From Methanomassiliicoccales archaeon (GTDB taxonomy: Archaea > Thermoplasmatota > Thermoplasmata > Methanomassiliicoccales > JACIVX01): a DNA stretch of 64,000 nt. Positions 2,329-64,000 of the stretch are shown in pieces (the first letter of the stretch is position 1; each line of letters begins with the position of its first letter). The translations under genes and the position numbers were made by a program. Where the stretch lies: the NCBI GenBank assembly GCA_050010535.1, contig JBEKKT010000007.1, forward strand, positions 6,052 to 70,051. The letters are read 5' to 3'. The notes below the pieces were generated by a model, which saw only the letters and a list, made by a program, of their open reading frames with translations, was not told the origin of the DNA and searched no databases.

Positions 2329-2994
2329 ATGGCCTTTGAGCTGATTACCGATAACCTTGGATTCTTCGGGAAGGGCGCTATACTCACTCTTGAGATCAGT
2401 CTCAGCGCGATCGCAATCGGTTTTGTTCTTGGAATCTTTATGGGTTTGGGCAGGGTCTCGAGAGTGCTGCCTCTGAGGCTCGTATCCACGGGATACGTCG
2501 AGGCTCTAAGAGGAACGCCTCTCCTTGTCCAGATATTCATAATATACTTCGGGTTGCCATCGGCCGGGATATACCTCAGTCCGCTCCTATCTGGCATACT
2601 CGCGGTGGGACTCAACAGCGCAGCATACCAGGCGGAGATAATCAGAGGAGGGATACAATCGGTTCCGAAGGGGCAGTTGGAGGCGGCGAGATCCATTGGG
2701 ATGACATACACCCAATCGATGCGCCATGTCGTTCTTCCTCAGGCGTTACGATTGATAATCCCTTCGATGACTAACGAATTCATAACATTGATAAAGGATT
2801 CATCTTTGGTGAGTGCGATAGGAATATGGGAACTGACGCTAGTAGGCAAGGAGTTAAACGCAAAATACTTCGAACCCTTCCAGATCTTCATCTTCATCGC
2901 CATCGTGTACTTCATAATGACGTACGCGACCTCGAAGATCATGCGGAGAGTGGAGAAGAAGTTCAAGATCCCGGGGTACGGCGCAGAAGCCTGA
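2329..2994 (+). CDS. Amino-acid ABC transporter permease (HisM/GlnP family)
   Basis: 221-aa polytopic membrane ORF with EAA-type loop ([22 protein letters not shown]). It sits between the SBP and ATPase genes. Confidence 0.9.
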
Positions 2995-3719
2995 TCGAAG
3001 CAGTCGACATCCACAAGTCATTCGACGGCCTCGAGGTGCTGAAGGGCGTCAACCTGTCGGTCTACAAGGGAGAAGTAGTCGTAATAATAGGACCCTCCGG
3101 AAGCGGGAAAAGCACATTCCTGCGATGCCTTAACAGACTGACCGAGCCGACGAAGGGGGAGGTCTACTTCGAGGGCGTCAAGATCACTGGCACTGATGTC
3201 GACATGAATGTGATCAGGGCCGAGATCGGAATGGTCTTCCAGGGCTTCAACCTCTTCTTGCACCTGACTGCGAAGAAGAACATCATGCTCGCCTTGACGA
3301 AGGTCAAGGGCATGGAGGCCGGTGAGGCCGACAAGAAATCGATGGAGGCCCTCGAAAGGGTGGGTTTGGCGAACAAGGCTGACACCTATCCCGGGCAGTT
3401 GTCCGGTGGACAACAGCAGAGGGTCGCGATCGCGAGGGCGGTCGCCATGAATCCCAAACTAATCATGTTCGACGAACCGACATCTGCCCTCGACCCTGAG
3501 CTGATCGGCGAGGTGCTCGACGTCATGAATTCCCTGGCAAAGGGCGGGATGACAATGATCGTTGTCACGCATGAGATGGGATTTGCGAGGGAAGTCTCGG
3601 ATCGCGTTGTATTCATGGATCATGGCATCGTTCTCGAGGAAGGCGCTCCGGCGGAAATCTTCACGAATCCCACGCACGAAAGGACCAAGACGTTCTTGAA
3701 GCGCTTGCTGAAGGAATGA
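2991..3719 (+). CDS. Amino-acid ABC transporter ATP-binding protein (GlnQ-like); start codon unresolved
   Basis: Walker [10 protein letters not shown], signature [14 protein letters not shown], Walker [13 protein letters not shown]. The conserved N-terminus (x)[12 protein letters not shown] aligns with the MIEFKNVSKHFG start of E. coli GlnQ and begins at CTG 2991, which overlaps the permease stop (CTGA). The only canonical in-frame starts are ATG 2826 (169-nt overlap with the permease) and GTG 3036 (truncates strand 1). Confidence 0.88.
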
Positions 3720-18899: not shown

Positions 18900-19736
18900 T
18901 CAGAACTTCTTCATGACGTACTCTGCGACCGACTGGAAGATCGCCCTTCCGTCTCCGGCGCCGTTCGGATCATCTCCCGACCTAGTCCAGTCCGGATGAG
19001 TGTACCTGTGGAACACCCTCTCGGGATGGGGCATAAGGCCCAATATGTTGCCCGCAGGGTTGCAAATGCCAGCGATGTTGCACAGCGAACCGTTTGGATT
19101 CCACGGGTATCCCGCGTACTCTCCCGCGGGATTGACGTACCTGAACACGATCTGGTCATCATCCTCCAACCGATCGAGCAGCTTGTCCTTCTTCTCGACG
19201 GGGAGCATCAGGTTTCCCTCCGCGTGGGCGCACGGGAACATGACAGTCTTCCCCTTCGGGATCGTCCTGGTGAACACTGATTTGCCGCGGTTCTCGTGCT
19301 TGAGCAGTGTCGGGGTGCATTCGAACCTGCCAGAAACGTTAGTGGCAAGGGCCGCCCGCGGTTCCTTTGTCATCACGTCATCGAAGGCAGGCAGCATGCC
19401 GAGCTCGACTAGTATCTGGAATCCGTTGCATATTCCGATCACGGGTTTCTCATCAGAGACGAACTCCCTGAGATCCGAGGACAATGCGCTCTTCATCCGA
19501 GCCGCGAAGATCGCCCCCGCCCTCACGTAGTCTCCCGCCGAGAATCCGCCTGGCAATGCAAGTATATGATACTCGGAGAGATTGCGAATGATATTGGACG
19601 GACACGCCCTTATGATCTGCTTGAGGTGGACCCTCTCCGGCTTCGTCCCGATTTCCTTGAAAGCGGCGTAGGTCTCGTCCTCACAGTTGGTGCCCTCGAT
19701 CCTCAGTATGCAGACCTTGATCTCACTGAGCTTCAT
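18900..19736 (-). CDS. purQ: Phosphoribosylformylglycinamidine synthase subunit PurQ (glutaminase)
   Basis: ILALPGGFSAGD, GICNGFQIL (catalytic Cys) and MPHPER motifs. Confidence 0.95.
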   Translation of the reverse strand: MKLSEIKVCILRIEGTNCEDETYAAFKEIGTKPERVHLKQIIRACPSNIIRNLSEYHILALPGGFSAGDYVRAGAIFAARMKSALSSDLREFVSDEKPVIGICNGFQILVELGMLPAFDDVMTKEPRAALATNVSGRFECTPTLLKHENRGKSVFTRTIPKGKTVMFPCAHAEGNLMLPVEKKDKLLDRLEDDDQIVFRYVNPAGEYAGYPWNPNGSLCNIAGICNPAGNILGLMPHPERVFHRYTHPDWTRSGDDPNGAGDGRAIFQSVAEYVMKKF

Positions 19737-58292: not shown

Positions 58293-59846
58293 TCAGTGCC
58301 TGAAGACTCGGGTCCCTGTGAACACCATGGCCATATTGTGTTCGTTCGCCGCCTGAATGACCTCTTCGTCCCTGACCGATCCTCCGGGCTGTATGATCGC
58401 AACCACACCAGCTTTTGCGGCCTCGTCCACTCCATCCCGGAACGGGAAGAAAGCATCGGAAGCCATCACGCTGCCTCTTGCTTCCTCCTTCGCCTTCGAG
58501 GCGGCGATTATGGAGGAGTCCACTCTGCTCATCTGCCCGGCGCCGATGCCGACCGCTCTCTCGTCCTTAGCGTAAATTATAGCATTGGACCAGACGTGTT
58601 TCGCTACCTTCCAGGCGAAAAGCATAGATTTGATCTCCTCCTCCGTAGGTTGCCGCTTCGTAACCACCTTAAGGTTCTCAGGCTTGAGTTTGATATACTC
58701 GGATGTTTGAACAAGTAGGCCGCCCTTGATCTTCTTCATCTTCATCTCTGGCTTCTCATCACGAGTGATCGGGGCGTTCGTCCTGAGGATCCGGATGTTC
58801 TTCTTCTTCATCAGGGTCTCGAGCGCGCCTGGCGTGTACGAAGGCGCTATGACCGCCTCGACGAAGTGTTTTGATATCTCCGCCGCCGTCGCGTCGTCGA
58901 GTTCCCTGTTGACTCCTATGACGCATCCGAACGCTGCTACTGGGTCGACATTGTAAGCGACCACGAAAGCGTCGGCGATCTTGTCGGCGCTGGCTATCCC
59001 GCAGGGGTTGGTGTGCTTCAACACGCATGATGTCGGCCTCTCAAAGTCCCTGAGGATCTCGAGGGCTGCTTCCAGGTCAAGGATGTTGTTGAATGACAGT
59101 TCCTTGCCGTGCAGCCTCTCGCTCCTGGAAATACATACCCCCGCCGCAAACGGATCAGTGTAGAACGCCGCCGACTGGTTCGGGTTCTCCCCATAGCGAA
59201 GATCCATGTCCTTCTCGAATCCAAGAGATAGAGTCGGCGGGAACAGGTCCGATCCGAACGCCTTGCCGAGGTACGAGGCAATCATGGAATCGTAGAACGA
59301 GGTACTTCTGAATGCTTCCAGCATCAGAGCCTTGAGCGTCTCCGCGCTTATGTCGCCGCCTGAGCCCCTCATCTCGTCGAGTATGGAGCCGTACCGGCCA
59401 GGATTCGTGACAACCGCCACGGACTGATAGTTCTTCGCAGCGGCTCTGATCATGCTCGGGCCGCCGATGTCGATGTTCTCGATGATGTCCTCGATGGTCG
59501 AATTCGGTTTCAGCACGGTCTCCTTGAACGGGTACAGGTTGACGACGACCATGTCTATCTTCTTAATGCCTCTGTCTGAGAGCGTCTTCATGTGCTCCGG
59601 AAGATCCCGTCGGGCGAGAATGCCCGCGTGGATCAGGGGGTGAAGCGTCTTGACTCTTCCATCCAGCATCTCGGGAAACCCCGTCACCTGTGAAATCTCG
59701 ATCGCGTCTATGTTGTTCTTCTTCAGCATCGATGCCGTTCCGCCCGTCGAGATCAACTCGACGCCCATCTGCTTCAGTTCCGATGCGAACTCGACGACAC
59801 CGGTCTTGTTAGAAACACTGATTAATGCCCGTTCTATCTTGACCAT
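58293..59846 (-). CDS. purH: Bifunctional AICAR transformylase / IMP cyclohydrolase
   Basis: 517 aa. [19 protein letters not shown], and IQPGGSVRD at the C-terminus. Confidence 0.95.
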
Positions 59847-59893
59847 ACCGATTCCTCCCAGCTAAGGTAAGGCATACAAGAAACAGTATGCCG

Positions 59894-59905
59894 GGCATAT
59901 ATGCC
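59894..59905. promoter_or_regulatory. Perfectly palindromic TATA element GGCATATATGCC in the purH / methyltransferase divergent region
   Basis: 12-nt perfect palindrome about 52 nt upstream of the purH ATG 59846 (SD GGGAGGAAT in between). It could in principle bind TBP in either orientation. Confidence 0.35.
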
Positions 59906-60045
59906 ACACTTAGACATAAATATGATTGCAGGGAGGCTCGAATCTCACAGTCGACTTTCGGTCAGAGCGACTAGGGCCTCACCCCTGGGCTCAGAATCCA
60001 AAGACTTTTATTCGCCGACCCCTGTTCGTAATTCCGGTCAATCTG

Positions 60046-60822
60046 ATGATCGTTATCAGCGAGAGGATCAACGGTCTCTTCGCATCCGTTGCGAAGGCCA
60101 TCGACAAGCGGGATTCGAAGTTCATTCAGGACCTTGCCCTGAGACAAGTCGAATGCGGGGCGCAGATGCTGGACGTGAACACAGGCCCCGGAAGAGAGGA
60201 CGCGCCAGCGGTGATGGATTGGTTGGTCAGGACCGTTCAAGAAGTCACCGATCTTCCACTGTGCCTGGATACTCCAGGTGCAAAAACCATGGATGCGGGC
60301 CTAAAGGCATGCAAGAACAAGGTCGTGATGAACTCCACGACCGCTGAACGCAAGAGGATGGAGCGGTTCTTCCCCCTTTGCAGGGAACACGGCACAGAGA
60401 TCATTTGCCTTGCAATGGACGAGCGAGGCATACCGAATGATGCCCAGTCTCGTGCCGAAATGGCGATGTTGATGATGACCACCGCCATGGAGTACGATAT
60501 CATGCCGGATCGCCTCTATCTCGATCCGCTCGTAATGCCTGTTGGAGCGGCTCAGGACCAGGCTGGGAAAGCCATCCAGGCGCTGCAACTGTTTCAGACT
60601 CTGAACAACCCTCCCCCGCGAACGGTGGTGGGACTCAGCAATGTTTCCAATCAAACGAAAGAGAGAGGTCTCCTGAATAGGACCTACCTGGCAATGCTAA
60701 TGGGTGTCGGGCTCACAGCGGCAATATGCGATCCAGAGGACGAGGATCTCATGAAGATCATCAAGGCAGGCCAGGTTCTTCTCAATCAGAAGTTGTACTG
60801 CGACGATTTCTTGAGAGCCTGA
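60046..60822 (+). CDS. Pterin-binding methyltransferase (MeTr/AcsE/MtrH-like, methyl-THF:corrinoid type)
   Basis: MIVISERINGLFASV start, GAQMLDVNTGPG, LCLDTP, GLSNVSN motifs of the DHPS-like pterin-binding barrel. TTTTATTC at 60006-60013 lies upstream. The ORF-track start 59926 adds a non-homologous extension. Confidence 0.75.
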   Translation: MIVISERINGLFASVAKAIDKRDSKFIQDLALRQVECGAQMLDVNTGPGREDAPAVMDWLVRTVQEVTDLPLCLDTPGAKTMDAGLKACKNKVVMNSTTAERKRMERFFPLCREHGTEIICLAMDERGIPNDAQSRAEMAMLMMTTAMEYDIMPDRLYLDPLVMPVGAAQDQAGKAIQALQLFQTLNNPPPRTVVGLSNVSNQTKERGLLNRTYLAMLMGVGLTAAICDPEDEDLMKIIKAGQVLLNQKLYCDDFLRA

Positions 60823-60845
60823 GATGTCCCACTGGAGAAAAGGGG

Positions 60846-61763
60846 TCAGACAATCGGTCTGGGGTATAGGCCAGCTCTCTGCACTATCTCGGGGACCTTC
60901 TGCTCCCAGGCTATTGCCATGATGTGAACGCCATGAACTCCCTTGATCTTTCTCAGGTGTTCGATCTGTTCCACGCAAATAGCGATTCCCTCCAACTTCG
61001 GGTCAGCGGCCTTCCTCATCCGTTCTATGATGCCGTCCGGAACCATAGTTCCTGGAACCTTCGTCTTCATGTATTTCGCTGCGCCAAGTGATTTCAGAGG
61101 AAGGACTCCCGCGAGCAAGTGGACCTTCTTGTCGAGTCCCCTGTCTCTGACGCCCACCATCCAACGCTCGAATCTCTCCATGTCGAAGACCGCTTGGGTC
61201 TGTATGAACTCCGCTCCGGCCGTAATCTTCTTCCCCAGCCTCGCGACTCTGAATTCGAATGGGTCCGCAAACGGATTCTCTGTCGCTCCTAAGAAGACCT
61301 TCGGTGCCTCTTCTAGCTCGTCCCCGCCCCAGACTCTCTTCTCATCCCTCATCATCCTGAATATCTGCAACTCTTGTATCGAGTCGATATCGTAGACGTT
61401 CTTCGACTCCTTCTGATTCCCGAATGTCTGATGGTCGCCGCTGAGGCACAAGACATTCTTCACTCCCAGCGCTGCGGCGCCGAGCAGATCCGACTGAAGA
61501 GCGATCCTGTTCCGATCCCTGCACGTCATCTGCATTACTGGTTCAGCACCCTCCTGTATGCAGAGGACTGCGGAGGCGAAGCTGGACATTCTCACGATCG
61601 CAGTCTGGTTGTCCGTTACATTGAACGCGTCCCCGTAATCCTTCATCATCCTCGCATGATTCCTTACGACTTCTGGGTTCGGAGATCTTGGAGGGCCTAT
61701 CTCGGCCGTCACCGCGAATCTCCCAGCGCTGAGTACCTTCTCCAGATTGCTGCCCGCTCTCAG
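60846..61763 (-). CDS. metF: Methylenetetrahydrofolate reductase (acetogen-type MetF); start probably CTG 61763
   Basis: NVTDNQTAIVRMS, TCRDRNRIALQSDLLGAAALGVKNVLCLSGDH. The track start, GTG 61712, falls inside the conserved strand RFAVTAEIGPPRS. Upstream, the open frame has no ATG/GTG/TTG. It does have CTG 61763, overlapping the metV TGA, with GGAGG 7 nt upstream. Confidence 0.85.
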   Translation of the reverse strand: MRAGSNLEKVLSAGRFAVTAEIGPPRSPNPEVVRNHARMMKDYGDAFNVTDNQTAIVRMSSFASAVLCIQEGAEPVMQMTCRDRNRIALQSDLLGAAALGVKNVLCLSGDHQTFGNQKESKNVYDIDSIQELQIFRMMRDEKRVWGGDELEEAPKVFLGATENPFADPFEFRVARLGKKITAGAEFIQTQAVFDMERFERWMVGVRDRGLDKKVHLLAGVLPLKSLGAAKYMKTKVPGTMVPDGIIERMRKAADPKLEGIAICVEQIEHLRKIKGVHGVHIMAIAWEQKVPEIVQRAGLYPRPIV

Positions 61764-62464
61764 TCGACACCCTCCTTTGCCTTCTTCTCCTCAGGAGTGA
61801 GGACTGCTTCCGGGCGCACTATCTTCCTCGGCCCGCCGCTCCTGCTCGGTATCCAGTTCTTCGGCGGAATCACCTTCTCCATCAATTCGAGCTGGTCGAA
61901 TCTCTTGAGGTTCTGGAAAATCTGATCCCAACCACAAGGGGTCTCTGGATTGACCTCGCACTTGCCGTTCTGCGAGCCCCCGCATGGTCCGTTCAGGAGG
62001 CTCTTCGCGCATCTCACGATGGGACAGATCCCCCCGGTCAAGTGAAGGACGCAGTCCCCGCATCCGCCGCATTTCTCGAGGAAGATGCCCTGCTCCTCAG
62101 GGGCCCCCATGTTTGAGGTGTTGAGTCCTGGTACTATCCTCGTGTCCGGGTAGAGATCCTGCAATACCTGCGCCCCGACGCCGCAGGCGATCGAGATGAT
62201 GACATCTCTCCCCTCCACGCTCGGGTGCATCTCCCTTACCCACTCCTTTTCGCACTGCCTCTCCACAGTAATCTCCGAGACCTCCCAGTCTTTATCGTTC
62301 AAGTCTGAGTATAGGCGCAGGGATTCTGCCAGGAGTCCCACCTCCTTTTCCCCTCCCGCGAGGCACATAGCGACACAAGACCTGCACCCTGCGACGAGGA
62401 TCCTGTGGTGACCTTCGACGATCTGGCAGATCTCTCCCAGGGGTTTTTGCTCCGCGACGATCAC
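61760..62464 (-). CDS. metV: MetV (MTHFR C-terminal-domain/zinc-finger subunit)
   Basis: GTG start in a GTGA overlap with mvhD. (M)IVAEQKPLGEI..., CGGCGDC, ICPIVRCAKSLLNGPCGG. The upstream part of the 375-aa track ORF is out-of-frame overlap with mvhD. Confidence 0.75.
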   Translation of the reverse strand: MIVAEQKPLGEICQIVEGHHRILVAGCRSCVAMCLAGGEKEVGLLAESLRLYSDLNDKDWEVSEITVERQCEKEWVREMHPSVEGRDVIISIACGVGAQVLQDLYPDTRIVPGLNTSNMGAPEEQGIFLEKCGGCGDCVLHLTGGICPIVRCAKSLLNGPCGGSQNGKCEVNPETPCGWDQIFQNLKRFDQLELMEKVIPPKNWIPSRSGGPRKIVRPEAVLTPEEKKAKEGVD

Positions 62465-62877
62465 TTGACCACCTTCTTCAGTGGACTCGGTCCAAGGTCT
62501 TCGACGCGCGAGACCATCTCCCGGACGATTTCGGGAAACCTCCACCCCTGGTTCGAGGCGACGTTGAACATCTCCAATCTCTCCTTCTCGATTCCGATAG
62601 CGTCGAGAAGCCGCTTCGCATGTTCGACCCTCTTCCTCGCCTCGAAGTTCCCGTACTCGTAGTGGCAATTCTTCTCGAGGCATCCGGCCACGAACACTGC
62701 GTCGGCGCCTTCTCTGAACGCCTTCAGTATGTGGAGGACGTCGATCCTTCCCGCGCAGGGGACCCTTATGACCATCGTTTCCGGTGAGTAGCGGATATGC
62801 ATGACGCCTGCGAGGTCCGCCGAGGAGTACGCTCCATGACTGCAGCAGTAGCCGATGATTCTCACGCGATCGGTCAT
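62461..62877 (-). CDS. mvhD: MvhD/FlpD-like [2Fe-2S] electron-transfer protein
   Basis: 138 aa. IIGYCCSHGAY, VPCAGRID, VFVAGCLEKNCHY motifs. ATGA overlap with hdrA. Confidence 0.85.
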   Translation of the reverse strand: MTDRVRIIGYCCSHGAYSSADLAGVMHIRYSPETMVIRVPCAGRIDVLHILKAFREGADAVFVAGCLEKNCHYEYGNFEARKRVEHAKRLLDAIGIEKERLEMFNVASNQGWRFPEIVREMVSRVEDLGPSPLKKVVK

Positions 62878-64000
62878 CTTCCGCCACCTCTCACGCTCGC
62901 GGACGACTGCGCCTCGATCTGCCCGTCCGTGTAGCCATATATCTGTATCGCCTTGCTAGGGCAGATCCCTACGCAAATGCCGCAACCCTGGCATGTCTGG
63001 ATGTCGATCTCCGCCATTCCGTCCTCGTTGATGAACGGCGCCGTGTACGGACAGCTTCTGATGCAGCAGAGGCAGACTGAGCACTTCTCCGGGTCGACCT
63101 CTGCGACAGTCCCTCCGACCTCTATGAATGGTAATGAGAGGAGGGAGACAGCTCCTGACGCGGCGGCCGACGCCGCCAGGAGATCCTCCGAAACGAGTCT
63201 CGGCCCTGCGGCGCCTCCGCAAAGGAAGACACCCTCTCTCAACGTTGATGTCGGCTCTAGCCGGACCTTGGATCCGACCAGGAATCCGCTCGCATCGATC
63301 GGGATCCTGAAGATCTTCGCAAGCCGCCTCGTATCTTGAGGTTTCAAGATATCGCCAACGACAACGAGATCTGCAGGCAGGCTCAGGGCAGTGTCCGAGC
63401 TTTCATCGGTGACTAGCACTCTCAGACTCCCCTCGCGCTCGATCACCACTTCTCCCTCGCACCGTACGAACCTGATCCCGCATTCCTGCGCCCTCTTGTA
63501 ATCGAGTTCGTTCATGCCATATGTTCTGAATTCGTTGGCGATGATCGTGACATCCGCAGAGGGCAGTAGGGCCTTCAACCTCAGAGCGTTGGTTATCGCG
63601 TCCAGGTGGCAGCTCCTTCCGACCACCACTTCCGACGAGGCCTTTGGGGCTATCATGACGACTTTTTCTGGGCAGACTTCTTGCGAGCTCAAGAACCTGT
63701 TGAACTCCCCTTGAGTGATCACTCGCTCATCCTCATCTTCTCCTCTTGGTGCGAACGGCACCGCGTCTAGGACGAGGATCACTGCCCCGCACCTGACATC
63801 CTCTTCCCCCTTTGGAGTCTGGATCAATGCCCGGAAGTCTCCGGGATGTCCCTGGAAGTCGACGATCTCTGCGTCGAGCAGAATCCTCACCGAAGGGCTG
63901 GATCTTAGTCCTTGTAGGATCTTCTGGACGTATTCAGCAGACACGCCATGAAATGTAGCTATCACGGAGACCTCTTCCAGCGATTCCTTCGGATCGACAA
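62874..64000 (-). CDS. hdrA: HdrA-like flavoprotein (heterodisulfide reductase subunit A family), 5' end beyond the window
   Basis: C-terminal 2x[4Fe-4S] motifs CSVCLCCIRSCP and CQGCGICVGICP, plus GVFLCGGAAGP. The reading frame stays open to position 64000. Confidence 0.8.
   Translation of the reverse strand, partial: VDPKESLEEVSVIATFHGVSAEYVQKILQGLRSSPSVRILLDAEIVDFQGHPGDFRALIQTPKGEEDVRCGAVILVLDAVPFAPRGEDEDERVITQGEFNRFLSSQEVCPEKVVMIAPKASSEVVVGRSCHLDAITNALRLKALLPSADVTIIANEFRTYGMNELDYKRAQECGIRFVRCEGEVVIEREGSLRVLVTDESSDTALSLPADLVVVGDILKPQDTRRLAKIFRIPIDASGFLVGSKVRLEPTSTLREGVFLCGGAAGPRLVSEDLLAASAAASGAVSLLSLPFIEVGGTVAEVDPEKCSVCLCCIRSCPYTAPFINEDGMAEIDIQTCQGCGICVGICPSKAIQIYGYTDGQIEAQSSASVRGGGR

Follow-up and report, generated by a model that had tools for sequence, protein, structure and literature searches.

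Where does translation of metF, the gene for a MetV-associated methylenetetrahydrofolate reductase (MTHFR), begin, when its reading frame holds no ATG, GTG or TTG able to head the conserved N-terminus? The question is raised by the minus strand of a 64,000-nucleotide (nt) stretch of Methanomassiliicoccales archaeon DNA, referred to below as the window. A preliminary description of this stretch had proposed genuine initiation at a CTG that overlaps the stop codon ending the upstream gene, metV, and had linked the case to an ABC ATPase gene in the same window. The analysis reported here makes it probable that metF begins at this codon, CUG 61763. Ortholog starts, the presence of the CTG in five lineages and selection on codons 2-9 all support the proposal, and it is from these comparisons that we infer initiation at the CUG.

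The metF reading frame and its N-terminus

Coordinates of metF were read directly from the minus-strand sequence, and the features around its start are as follows.

60846..61763, minus strand: metF (MetV-associated MTHFR), 305 codons from the CTG plus a stop codon; PF02219, ortholog length mode 305
61761..61763, minus strand: proposed CTG (CUG) initiation codon of metF, forming CTGA with the metV stop, at the position where orthologs start
61760..61762, minus strand: metV stop codon TGA, sharing two bases with the CTG (a -4 overlap); MetV tails read ...KEG[VI][DN]* in all relatives
61771..61776, minus strand: AGGAGG, a Shine-Dalgarno-like motif within the coding sequence of metV, separated from the downstream CTG by 7 nt
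61710..61712, minus strand: GTG chosen as start by Prodigal-type callers; codon 18 counted from the CTG, an invariant Val in predicted strand beta-1
61791..61793, minus strand: in-frame TGA closing the metF frame 5' of the CTG, by direct sequence reading

The frame is open from 61790, and the minus-strand reading found no ATG, GTG or TTG in it between the TGA at 61793-61791 and the GTG at 61712-61710. The codons that follow the TGA are GGA GAA GAA GGC AAA GGA GGG TGT CGA CTG AGA GCG GGC AGC AAT CTG GAG AAG GTA CTC AGC GCT GGG AGA TTC GCG GTG, and the translation from 61790 runs GEEGKGGCR-L-RAGSNLEKVLSAGRFA-V-TAEIGPPRS. The GGAGG core of the Shine-Dalgarno (SD) motif ends 7 nt before the CTG (spacer GTGTCGA), similar to the spacing at clear starts elsewhere in the window, where GGAGG lies at 6-8 nt. 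A weak GGGAG is also present 7 nt upstream of GTG 61712. Every coordinate given in the preliminary description was confirmed. The bare motif GGAGG-N5-9-CTGA showed no enrichment across the window (8 occurrences, 6.0 +/- 2.2 expected), nor did its counterpart with DTGA in place of CTGA (17 occurrences, 14.0 +/- 3.9 expected). Since it is no commoner than chance, the motif is uninformative alone, and the case takes its weight from the position at a real gene junction and from conservation among relatives. A frameshift or sequencing error that would bring in GTG 61770-61768 from another frame was considered and rejected: relatives have GGGGAT where the window has GGGTGT, and this GTG is not conserved.

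Homologs of MetF were searched for among 5.8 billion proteins, and the N-termini of the best 120 of the thousands found were compared. These 120 are mostly 303-310 residues long with a mode of 305, and the window frame read from the CTG gives exactly 305 residues. Most of them begin M[KR][AS]GSNLE[KR]VL..G.FAVTAEIGPP, a pattern that the window sequence (L)RAGSNLEKVLSAGRFAVTAEIGPP equals residue for residue, and more than 100 orthologs begin M[KR][AS]GSNLE... exactly at the CTG position. No ortholog in the alignment naturally starts at the position of GTG 61712, which the preliminary description had named as the finding that would count against the CTG; the 288-residue entries all come from CTG-bearing lineages.

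In the CTG-initiated protein the match to the Pfam MTHFR model sets in at residue 7, which is 11 residues upstream of the GTG. An AlphaFold model, for which 39 homologs were used, had a mean predicted local distance difference test (pLDDT) score of 90.5, with values of 92-97 over residues 1-20, and placed a helix at residues 6-12 and strand beta-1 at 17-22. The predicted fold alternates strand and helix elements in the manner of a TIM barrel, with beta-1 followed by GPP(K/R). In the alignment V18, P24 and P25 are invariant and F16 and A17 nearly so; the solved MTHFRs 1v93 and 3apt gave weak sequence matches, from residue 19 onwards. According to the model, a start at GTG 61712 would delete helix 6-12, F16 and A17 and replace the invariant V18. 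The earlier statement that such a start would truncate the first barrel strand thus holds in part: the Val does lie in predicted beta-1 and A17 would be lost, but the strand would be clipped rather than removed.

Selection on the N-terminal codons was estimated from Nei-Gojobori counts of nonsynonymous (pN) and synonymous (pS) differences over six clade members, all of which have an intact 305-codon frame.

Codons 2-9: pN/pS 0.12 (pS 0.57, pN 0.07)
Codons 2-17: pN/pS 0.28
Codons 18-305: pN/pS 0.14

Pairwise pS among the lineages was 0.4-0.8 over the whole gene and 0.2-1.1 within codons 2-9, where the differences are mostly synonymous changes at the third position (GCG/GCT, GGC/GGA, AAT/AAC, CTG/CTC/CTT, GAG/GAA). 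Codons 2-9 overlap no other gene, so that the purifying selection acting on them reflects translation in the metF frame. Judged by these counts, the 17 N-terminal codons encode protein and are subject to selection.

These data bear directly on the alternative that translation starts at the first canonical codon, here GTG 61712, yielding a 288-residue MetF without its N-terminal helix and the beginning of beta-1, with the conservation upstream being a relic. The GTG is a canonical codon preceded by the weak GGGAG, and it is selected by Prodigal-type callers and, in the L008 lineage described below, by the NCBI Prokaryotic Genome Annotation Pipeline (PGAP). However, codon 18 is an invariant Val that is written GTG, GTC or GTA in relatives and is not conserved as a start, and the GGGAG encodes Gly-Arg and persists where codon 18 is GTC. 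The constraint on codons 2-9 holds across diverged lineages and has outlived the loss of a canonical start, the segment that would be lost is confidently folded in the model and includes the nearly invariant F16 and A17, and orthologs that naturally start there are lacking. A GTG start is therefore considered improbable, and initiation at the CTG is preferred.

The metV/metF junction in related lineages

The same CTGA junction, ...AAGGAGGG(N)ATCGA-CTG-A..., was found in five distinct lineages, represented in Logan, ENA, JGI and NCBI assemblies of different samples. The labels are those of the loci compared here.

The window (identical to L001 and L092)
L002, L003 and L093
L004, L005, L012 and L094 (GCA_964544915.1)
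L006 and L007
L008, L009, L010 and L096 (GCA_028682925.1)

A sequencing artefact can be ruled out because these lineages come from several assemblies of different samples. The related possibility that metF is a decaying pseudogene has, like an assembly error, nothing to recommend it beyond the missing canonical start. The junction is identical in independent assemblies made from different samples by different pipelines, the gene-wide pN/pS is 0.14 and the 305-codon frame is intact in 6/6 members compared; error or decay is an explanation of vanishingly small probability, and the CTG is taken as a real feature of an intact gene.

In a neighbour-joining tree the CTG lineages form one clade, whose sister group has ATG. 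L011, nested within the CTG clade, has TTGA, as do L172 and L173 (a JGI variant), which share 98.8% nucleotide identity with L004 across metF. The base that distinguishes CTG from TTG is the synonymous third base of the last MetV codon (GAC/GAT), and by this comparison the two codons appear close to interchangeable at the junction. Over about 60 distinct junction sequences tabulated, and further loci, the junction codon is always NTG, with ATG the commonest, followed by TTG, CTG and GTG. Archaeal relatives retain an AGGAGG or GGAGG some 7 nt before this codon, despite differences in the C-terminal residues of MetV.

The position of the first canonical codon downstream of the CTG varies, being codon 10 in L002 and L004 (GTG) and in L006 (ATG), and codon 18 in L008 and the window (GTG); at these sites Val is encoded by synonymous codons in the other lineages (GTA/GTC at codon 10, GTC/GTA at codon 18). 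No downstream canonical start is conserved among the CTG lineages. L004, L006 and L008 likewise have no in-frame ATG, GTG or TTG able to head the conserved N-terminus, and in L002 the only upstream canonical candidates are distant, at least 168 nt away and inside metV. In L006 a TGA stands directly 5' of the CTG, so that the metF frame opens exactly at this codon. Across the sequences compared, the junction CTG is the only conserved NTG able to head the N-terminal codons, and it alternates only with TTG in close relatives.

The junctions also speak to the possibility that MetV and MetF are fused by a programmed -1 frameshift where metV ends, the CTG then being an internal leucine codon. Such a shift would fit the frames, metF being in the -1 frame relative to metV with the two overlapping at CTGA, and the junction codons of the CTG clade, CTG and TTG, all encode leucine. 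Against it, the sequence is GTC GAC TGA or ATT GAC TGA, with no slippery heptamer, and in sister lineages, where separate genes are called, the junction codon is ATG or GTG. Neither was a conserved downstream RNA structure found, of a kind that might stimulate frameshifting or enforce coupling: the minimum free energy of the junction was -38.5 kcal/mol (z = -0.06), and RNAalifold gave no compensatory pairs. In L006 the TGA before the CTG would confine the shift to a single codon at which no re-pairing is possible, and this stop makes a fusion very unlikely in the sequences at hand. Frameshifting is given only a very slight probability, well below that of a GTG start, and separate initiation at the CTG remains the preferred explanation.

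A more distant relative, L023, has the junction TCTAGTGA, in which an in-frame TAG directly precedes the TGA in the metV frame. In Methanomassiliicoccales TAG is often decoded as pyrrolysine, and the end of metV in L023 is for this reason ambiguous: either TAG and TGA form a tandem stop, or the junction is a TAGTG overlap of the -1 style that takes in the GTG start.

Overlapping genes and a proposed mechanism of initiation

metF is the last of four co-directional genes, the other three being:

61760..62464, minus strand: metV (PF12225), whose GTG start overlaps the mvhD stop (GTGA 62464-62461)
62461..62877, minus strand: mvhD (FlpD; PF02662), with an ATG start that overlaps the HdrA-like gene's stop (ATGA 62877-62874)
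62874..63965, minus strand: HdrA-like iron-sulfur flavoprotein gene (ferredoxin-domain protein), with which the coupled series begins in the window

Pfam searches assigned the downstream gene of the CTGA junction to PF02219, MTHFR (5.4e-39, residues 7-298 on profile positions 2-287 of 287), and the upstream gene to the MetV-type family PF12225 (3e-36). In relatives the HdrA-like homologs are 478-580 residues long, with Pyr_redox and Fer4 matches. The four genes are joined by three successive 4-nt stop/start overlaps, ATGA 62877, GTGA 62464 and CTGA 61763-61760, each with an SD-like motif 6-8 nt upstream within the preceding gene. The mvhD/metV junction of L006 is ATGA rather than GTGA.

Under the proposed mechanism, metF would be translated from CUG 61763-61761 into 305 residues with the predicted N-terminus Met-Arg-Ala-Gly-Ser-Asn-Leu-Glu-Lys. 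A ribosome ending metV at the UGA would be held by pairing between AGGAGG and the anti-SD sequence, and, using initiator Met-tRNA, would start again at the near-cognate CUG that overlaps this stop (termination-reinitiation coupling, TeRe). Because the CTG shares bases with the metV stop and belongs to a series of -4 junctions, re-initiation would be the most likely route, and given a CUG start we lean towards TeRe as its mechanism. A CUG normally supports very little de novo initiation, so that most MetF synthesis would hinge on translation of MetV, an arrangement that would suit two subunits of one complex. Coupling would also explain how a core enzyme tolerates a weak CUG, and would tie MetF output to MetV. 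We infer that the initiator tRNA reads the CUG, that the ribosome re-initiates rather than starting de novo, and that the weak codon may have a tuning role.

Termination-reinitiation at overlapping gene pairs has been shown in Haloferax volcanii and E. coli (PMC6728339), overlapping TeRe pairs have been noted as encoding subunits of heteromeric complexes (PMC10666635), and NTGA is the commonest overlap spacing (PMC12548453). The metV/metF pair resembles those systems (Huber et al. 2019, PMC6728339; 2023, PMC10666635; review PMC12548453) in its NTGA -4 overlap of co-directional genes, its AGGAGG within the upstream ORF 7 nt before the start, its complex-subunit genes and its three junctions in a row.

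Several points weigh against initiation of metF at the CUG by this route. In E. coli, de novo initiation at CUG reaches only about 1-2% of that at AUG (bioRxiv 10.1101/063800), which would seem too low for a core enzyme of the one-carbon (C1) pathway unless coupling compensates. Evolutionary switches to CUG are very rare in prokaryotes, having been found for 2/61,358 AUG, 1/5,080 GUG and 1/2,468 UUG starts, or about 1e-5 to 4e-4 per reconstructed start (PMC5622118). The pairs tested for TeRe had canonical starts, and restart at CUG was not among them in the available text of the reports (PMC6728339, PMC10666635), whereas metV/metF has a CUG at which coupling is proposed. Some NCBI records of the L008 lineage (MDD1765926.1, MCJ7516338.1) annotate the 288-residue form. 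The SD motif lies within coding sequence, and its conservation could partly reflect MetV residues. With about seven sub-lineages sampled and a site that is synonymous for MetV (GAT/GAC), recurrent recent changes from TTG to CTG are formally conceivable.

CTG is a listed, rarely used prokaryotic initiation codon. Compared with the other rare prokaryotic starts outside AUG, GUG and UUG (CUG, AUU, AUC and AUA in genetic code table 11), metF is alike in having a near-cognate CUG with an SD motif at normal spacing, presumably read by the initiator tRNA as Met, and CTG starts are annotated in some genomes. It differs in belonging to an archaeon, in occurring in five species-level lineages rather than as a singleton, and in its -4 stop/start overlap. 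E. coli infC, which starts at AUU, is an example of a conserved weak start codon used for control. metF is similar to infC in that selection maintains its non-canonical start and the gene as a whole is under strong purifying selection; autoregulation by the initiation factor is a feature of the infC type, whereas the alternation of the metF CTG with TTG suggests near-neutrality rather than a strict requirement.

A second CTGA junction, public records and gene order

A scan of NTGA junctions between long ORFs across the window gave about a dozen plausible cases, two of which are CTGA: metF and the gene below.

2991..3719, plus strand: GlnQ-type ABC ATPase; CTG 2991-2993 at model position 1, overlapping the permease stop (CTGA)

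Residue 2 of the ATPase aligns to position 2 of the full-length GlnQ model, which puts CTG 2991-2993 at the Met of the model. CTGA is likewise present in a relative with 92% identity, L174 (GCA_028679985.1, position 1201), where the NCBI gene call starts at this CTG, in keeping with the link drawn in the preliminary description. No good SD was found near CTG 2991-2993. In L175-L177 (86-88% identity; position about 1153) the junction is TTAA followed by ATC, with the N-terminal residues conserved, and the N-termini of the NCBI proteins P0125 and P0126 imply an ATC start. A minus-strand CTGA at 18903 was rejected as the ATPase case, its translation not being protein-like; the true case is that on the plus strand at 2991.

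The ATPase lineage with TTA then ATC, where the N-terminal residues persist in the absence of any NTG, lends something to the idea that metF initiation is not tied to the CUG, and that ribosomes re-initiate at one or more other non-canonical codons among codons 2-10 while the CTG is tolerated. So does ribosome profiling (Ribo-seq) in H. volcanii, in which about 30% of putative alternative initiation sites were near-cognate, sites that the study itself set aside (PMC7261190). At metF, however, codons 2-9 contain no other conserved near-cognate, codon 2 being AGA, AGG, AAG or ATA and codon 7 CTG, CTC or CTT; the SD spacing points to the junction codon, and over the junctions tabulated that codon varies only among NTG forms. 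Initiation away from the CUG is judged unlikely, if slightly less so than a GTG start, and CUG 61763 remains the probable start of metF.

The two genes, taken as two cases and not as a survey, hint that weak restart codons at overlaps may be tolerated throughout the lineage. A broader reading, possible but doubtful, is that it matters little, in this Methanomassiliicoccales-related lineage, which codon re-initiation uses at 4-nt overlaps. This would accord with CUG and UUG as near-neutral alternatives at metV/metF, with the CUG at the permease/ATPase junction and with UUA-AUC there in one relative. If the reading were true, terminating archaeal ribosomes would be less strict in proofreading the start codon, and weak restart codons could serve to bind the synthesis of downstream subunits strictly to upstream translation. 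A CUG kept across five lineages, with a second case in the same 64 kb, offers a natural test case for whether termination-reinitiation relaxes archaeal start-codon selection.

Exact-sequence look-ups showed that the 305-residue MetF and the 242-residue ATPase, each read from its CTG position, are already held at NCBI as MGD0056740.1 and MGD0056678.1; a single contig of 75,990 bp carries both, in a 'Methanomassiliicoccales archaeon' metagenome-assembled genome. The same MetF has 305 residues at NCBI, 288 in Logan, 267 at JGI and 266 at ENA, and the same or closely related genes are recorded with 305, 296, 288, 267 or 266 residues. The nearest database entries are short, with 288 residues at 100% and 79% identity and 296 at 81-86%. 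The expectation that standard gene callers would mis-annotate both genes was accordingly borne out for the Prodigal-type calls in Logan, JGI and ENA, which are truncated, but not for the NCBI records of the two proteins. The CTG start of metF is thus already annotated, but as a predicted start that is applied inconsistently. As far as could be found, its conservation at clade level and its alternation with TTG have no published description. Missing from the truncated records are part of beta-1 and the helix that the model predicts to be folded; such records would be corrected if starts were called by homology, with CTG admitted at NTGA junctions.

The gene order of this region (58293-63965 in the window) is conserved across the clade, including L004, L006 and L008: hdrA-like, mvhD, metV, metF, a divergent pterin-binding methyltransferase gene, purH and a PolX-type polymerase gene. 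This fits a tetrahydrofolate C1 module in Methanomassiliicoccales-related archaea. Acetogens such as Moorella thermoacetica have an hdrCBA-mvhD-metVF gene cluster. By gene content, the level at which the two were compared, the archaeal locus shares the order hdrA-like, mvhD, metV, metF and the MetV-associated type of MetF, while the unusual start codon is confined to a single archaeal sub-clade. ARAGORN detected no tRNA genes in the 64-kb window. The divergent pterin-binding (MeTr-like) gene at 59926-60822 on the plus strand is a 298-residue ORF when read from TTG 59926, and its orthologs in relatives are uniformly 258 residues long; by this comparison its real start probably lies about 40 codons further in.

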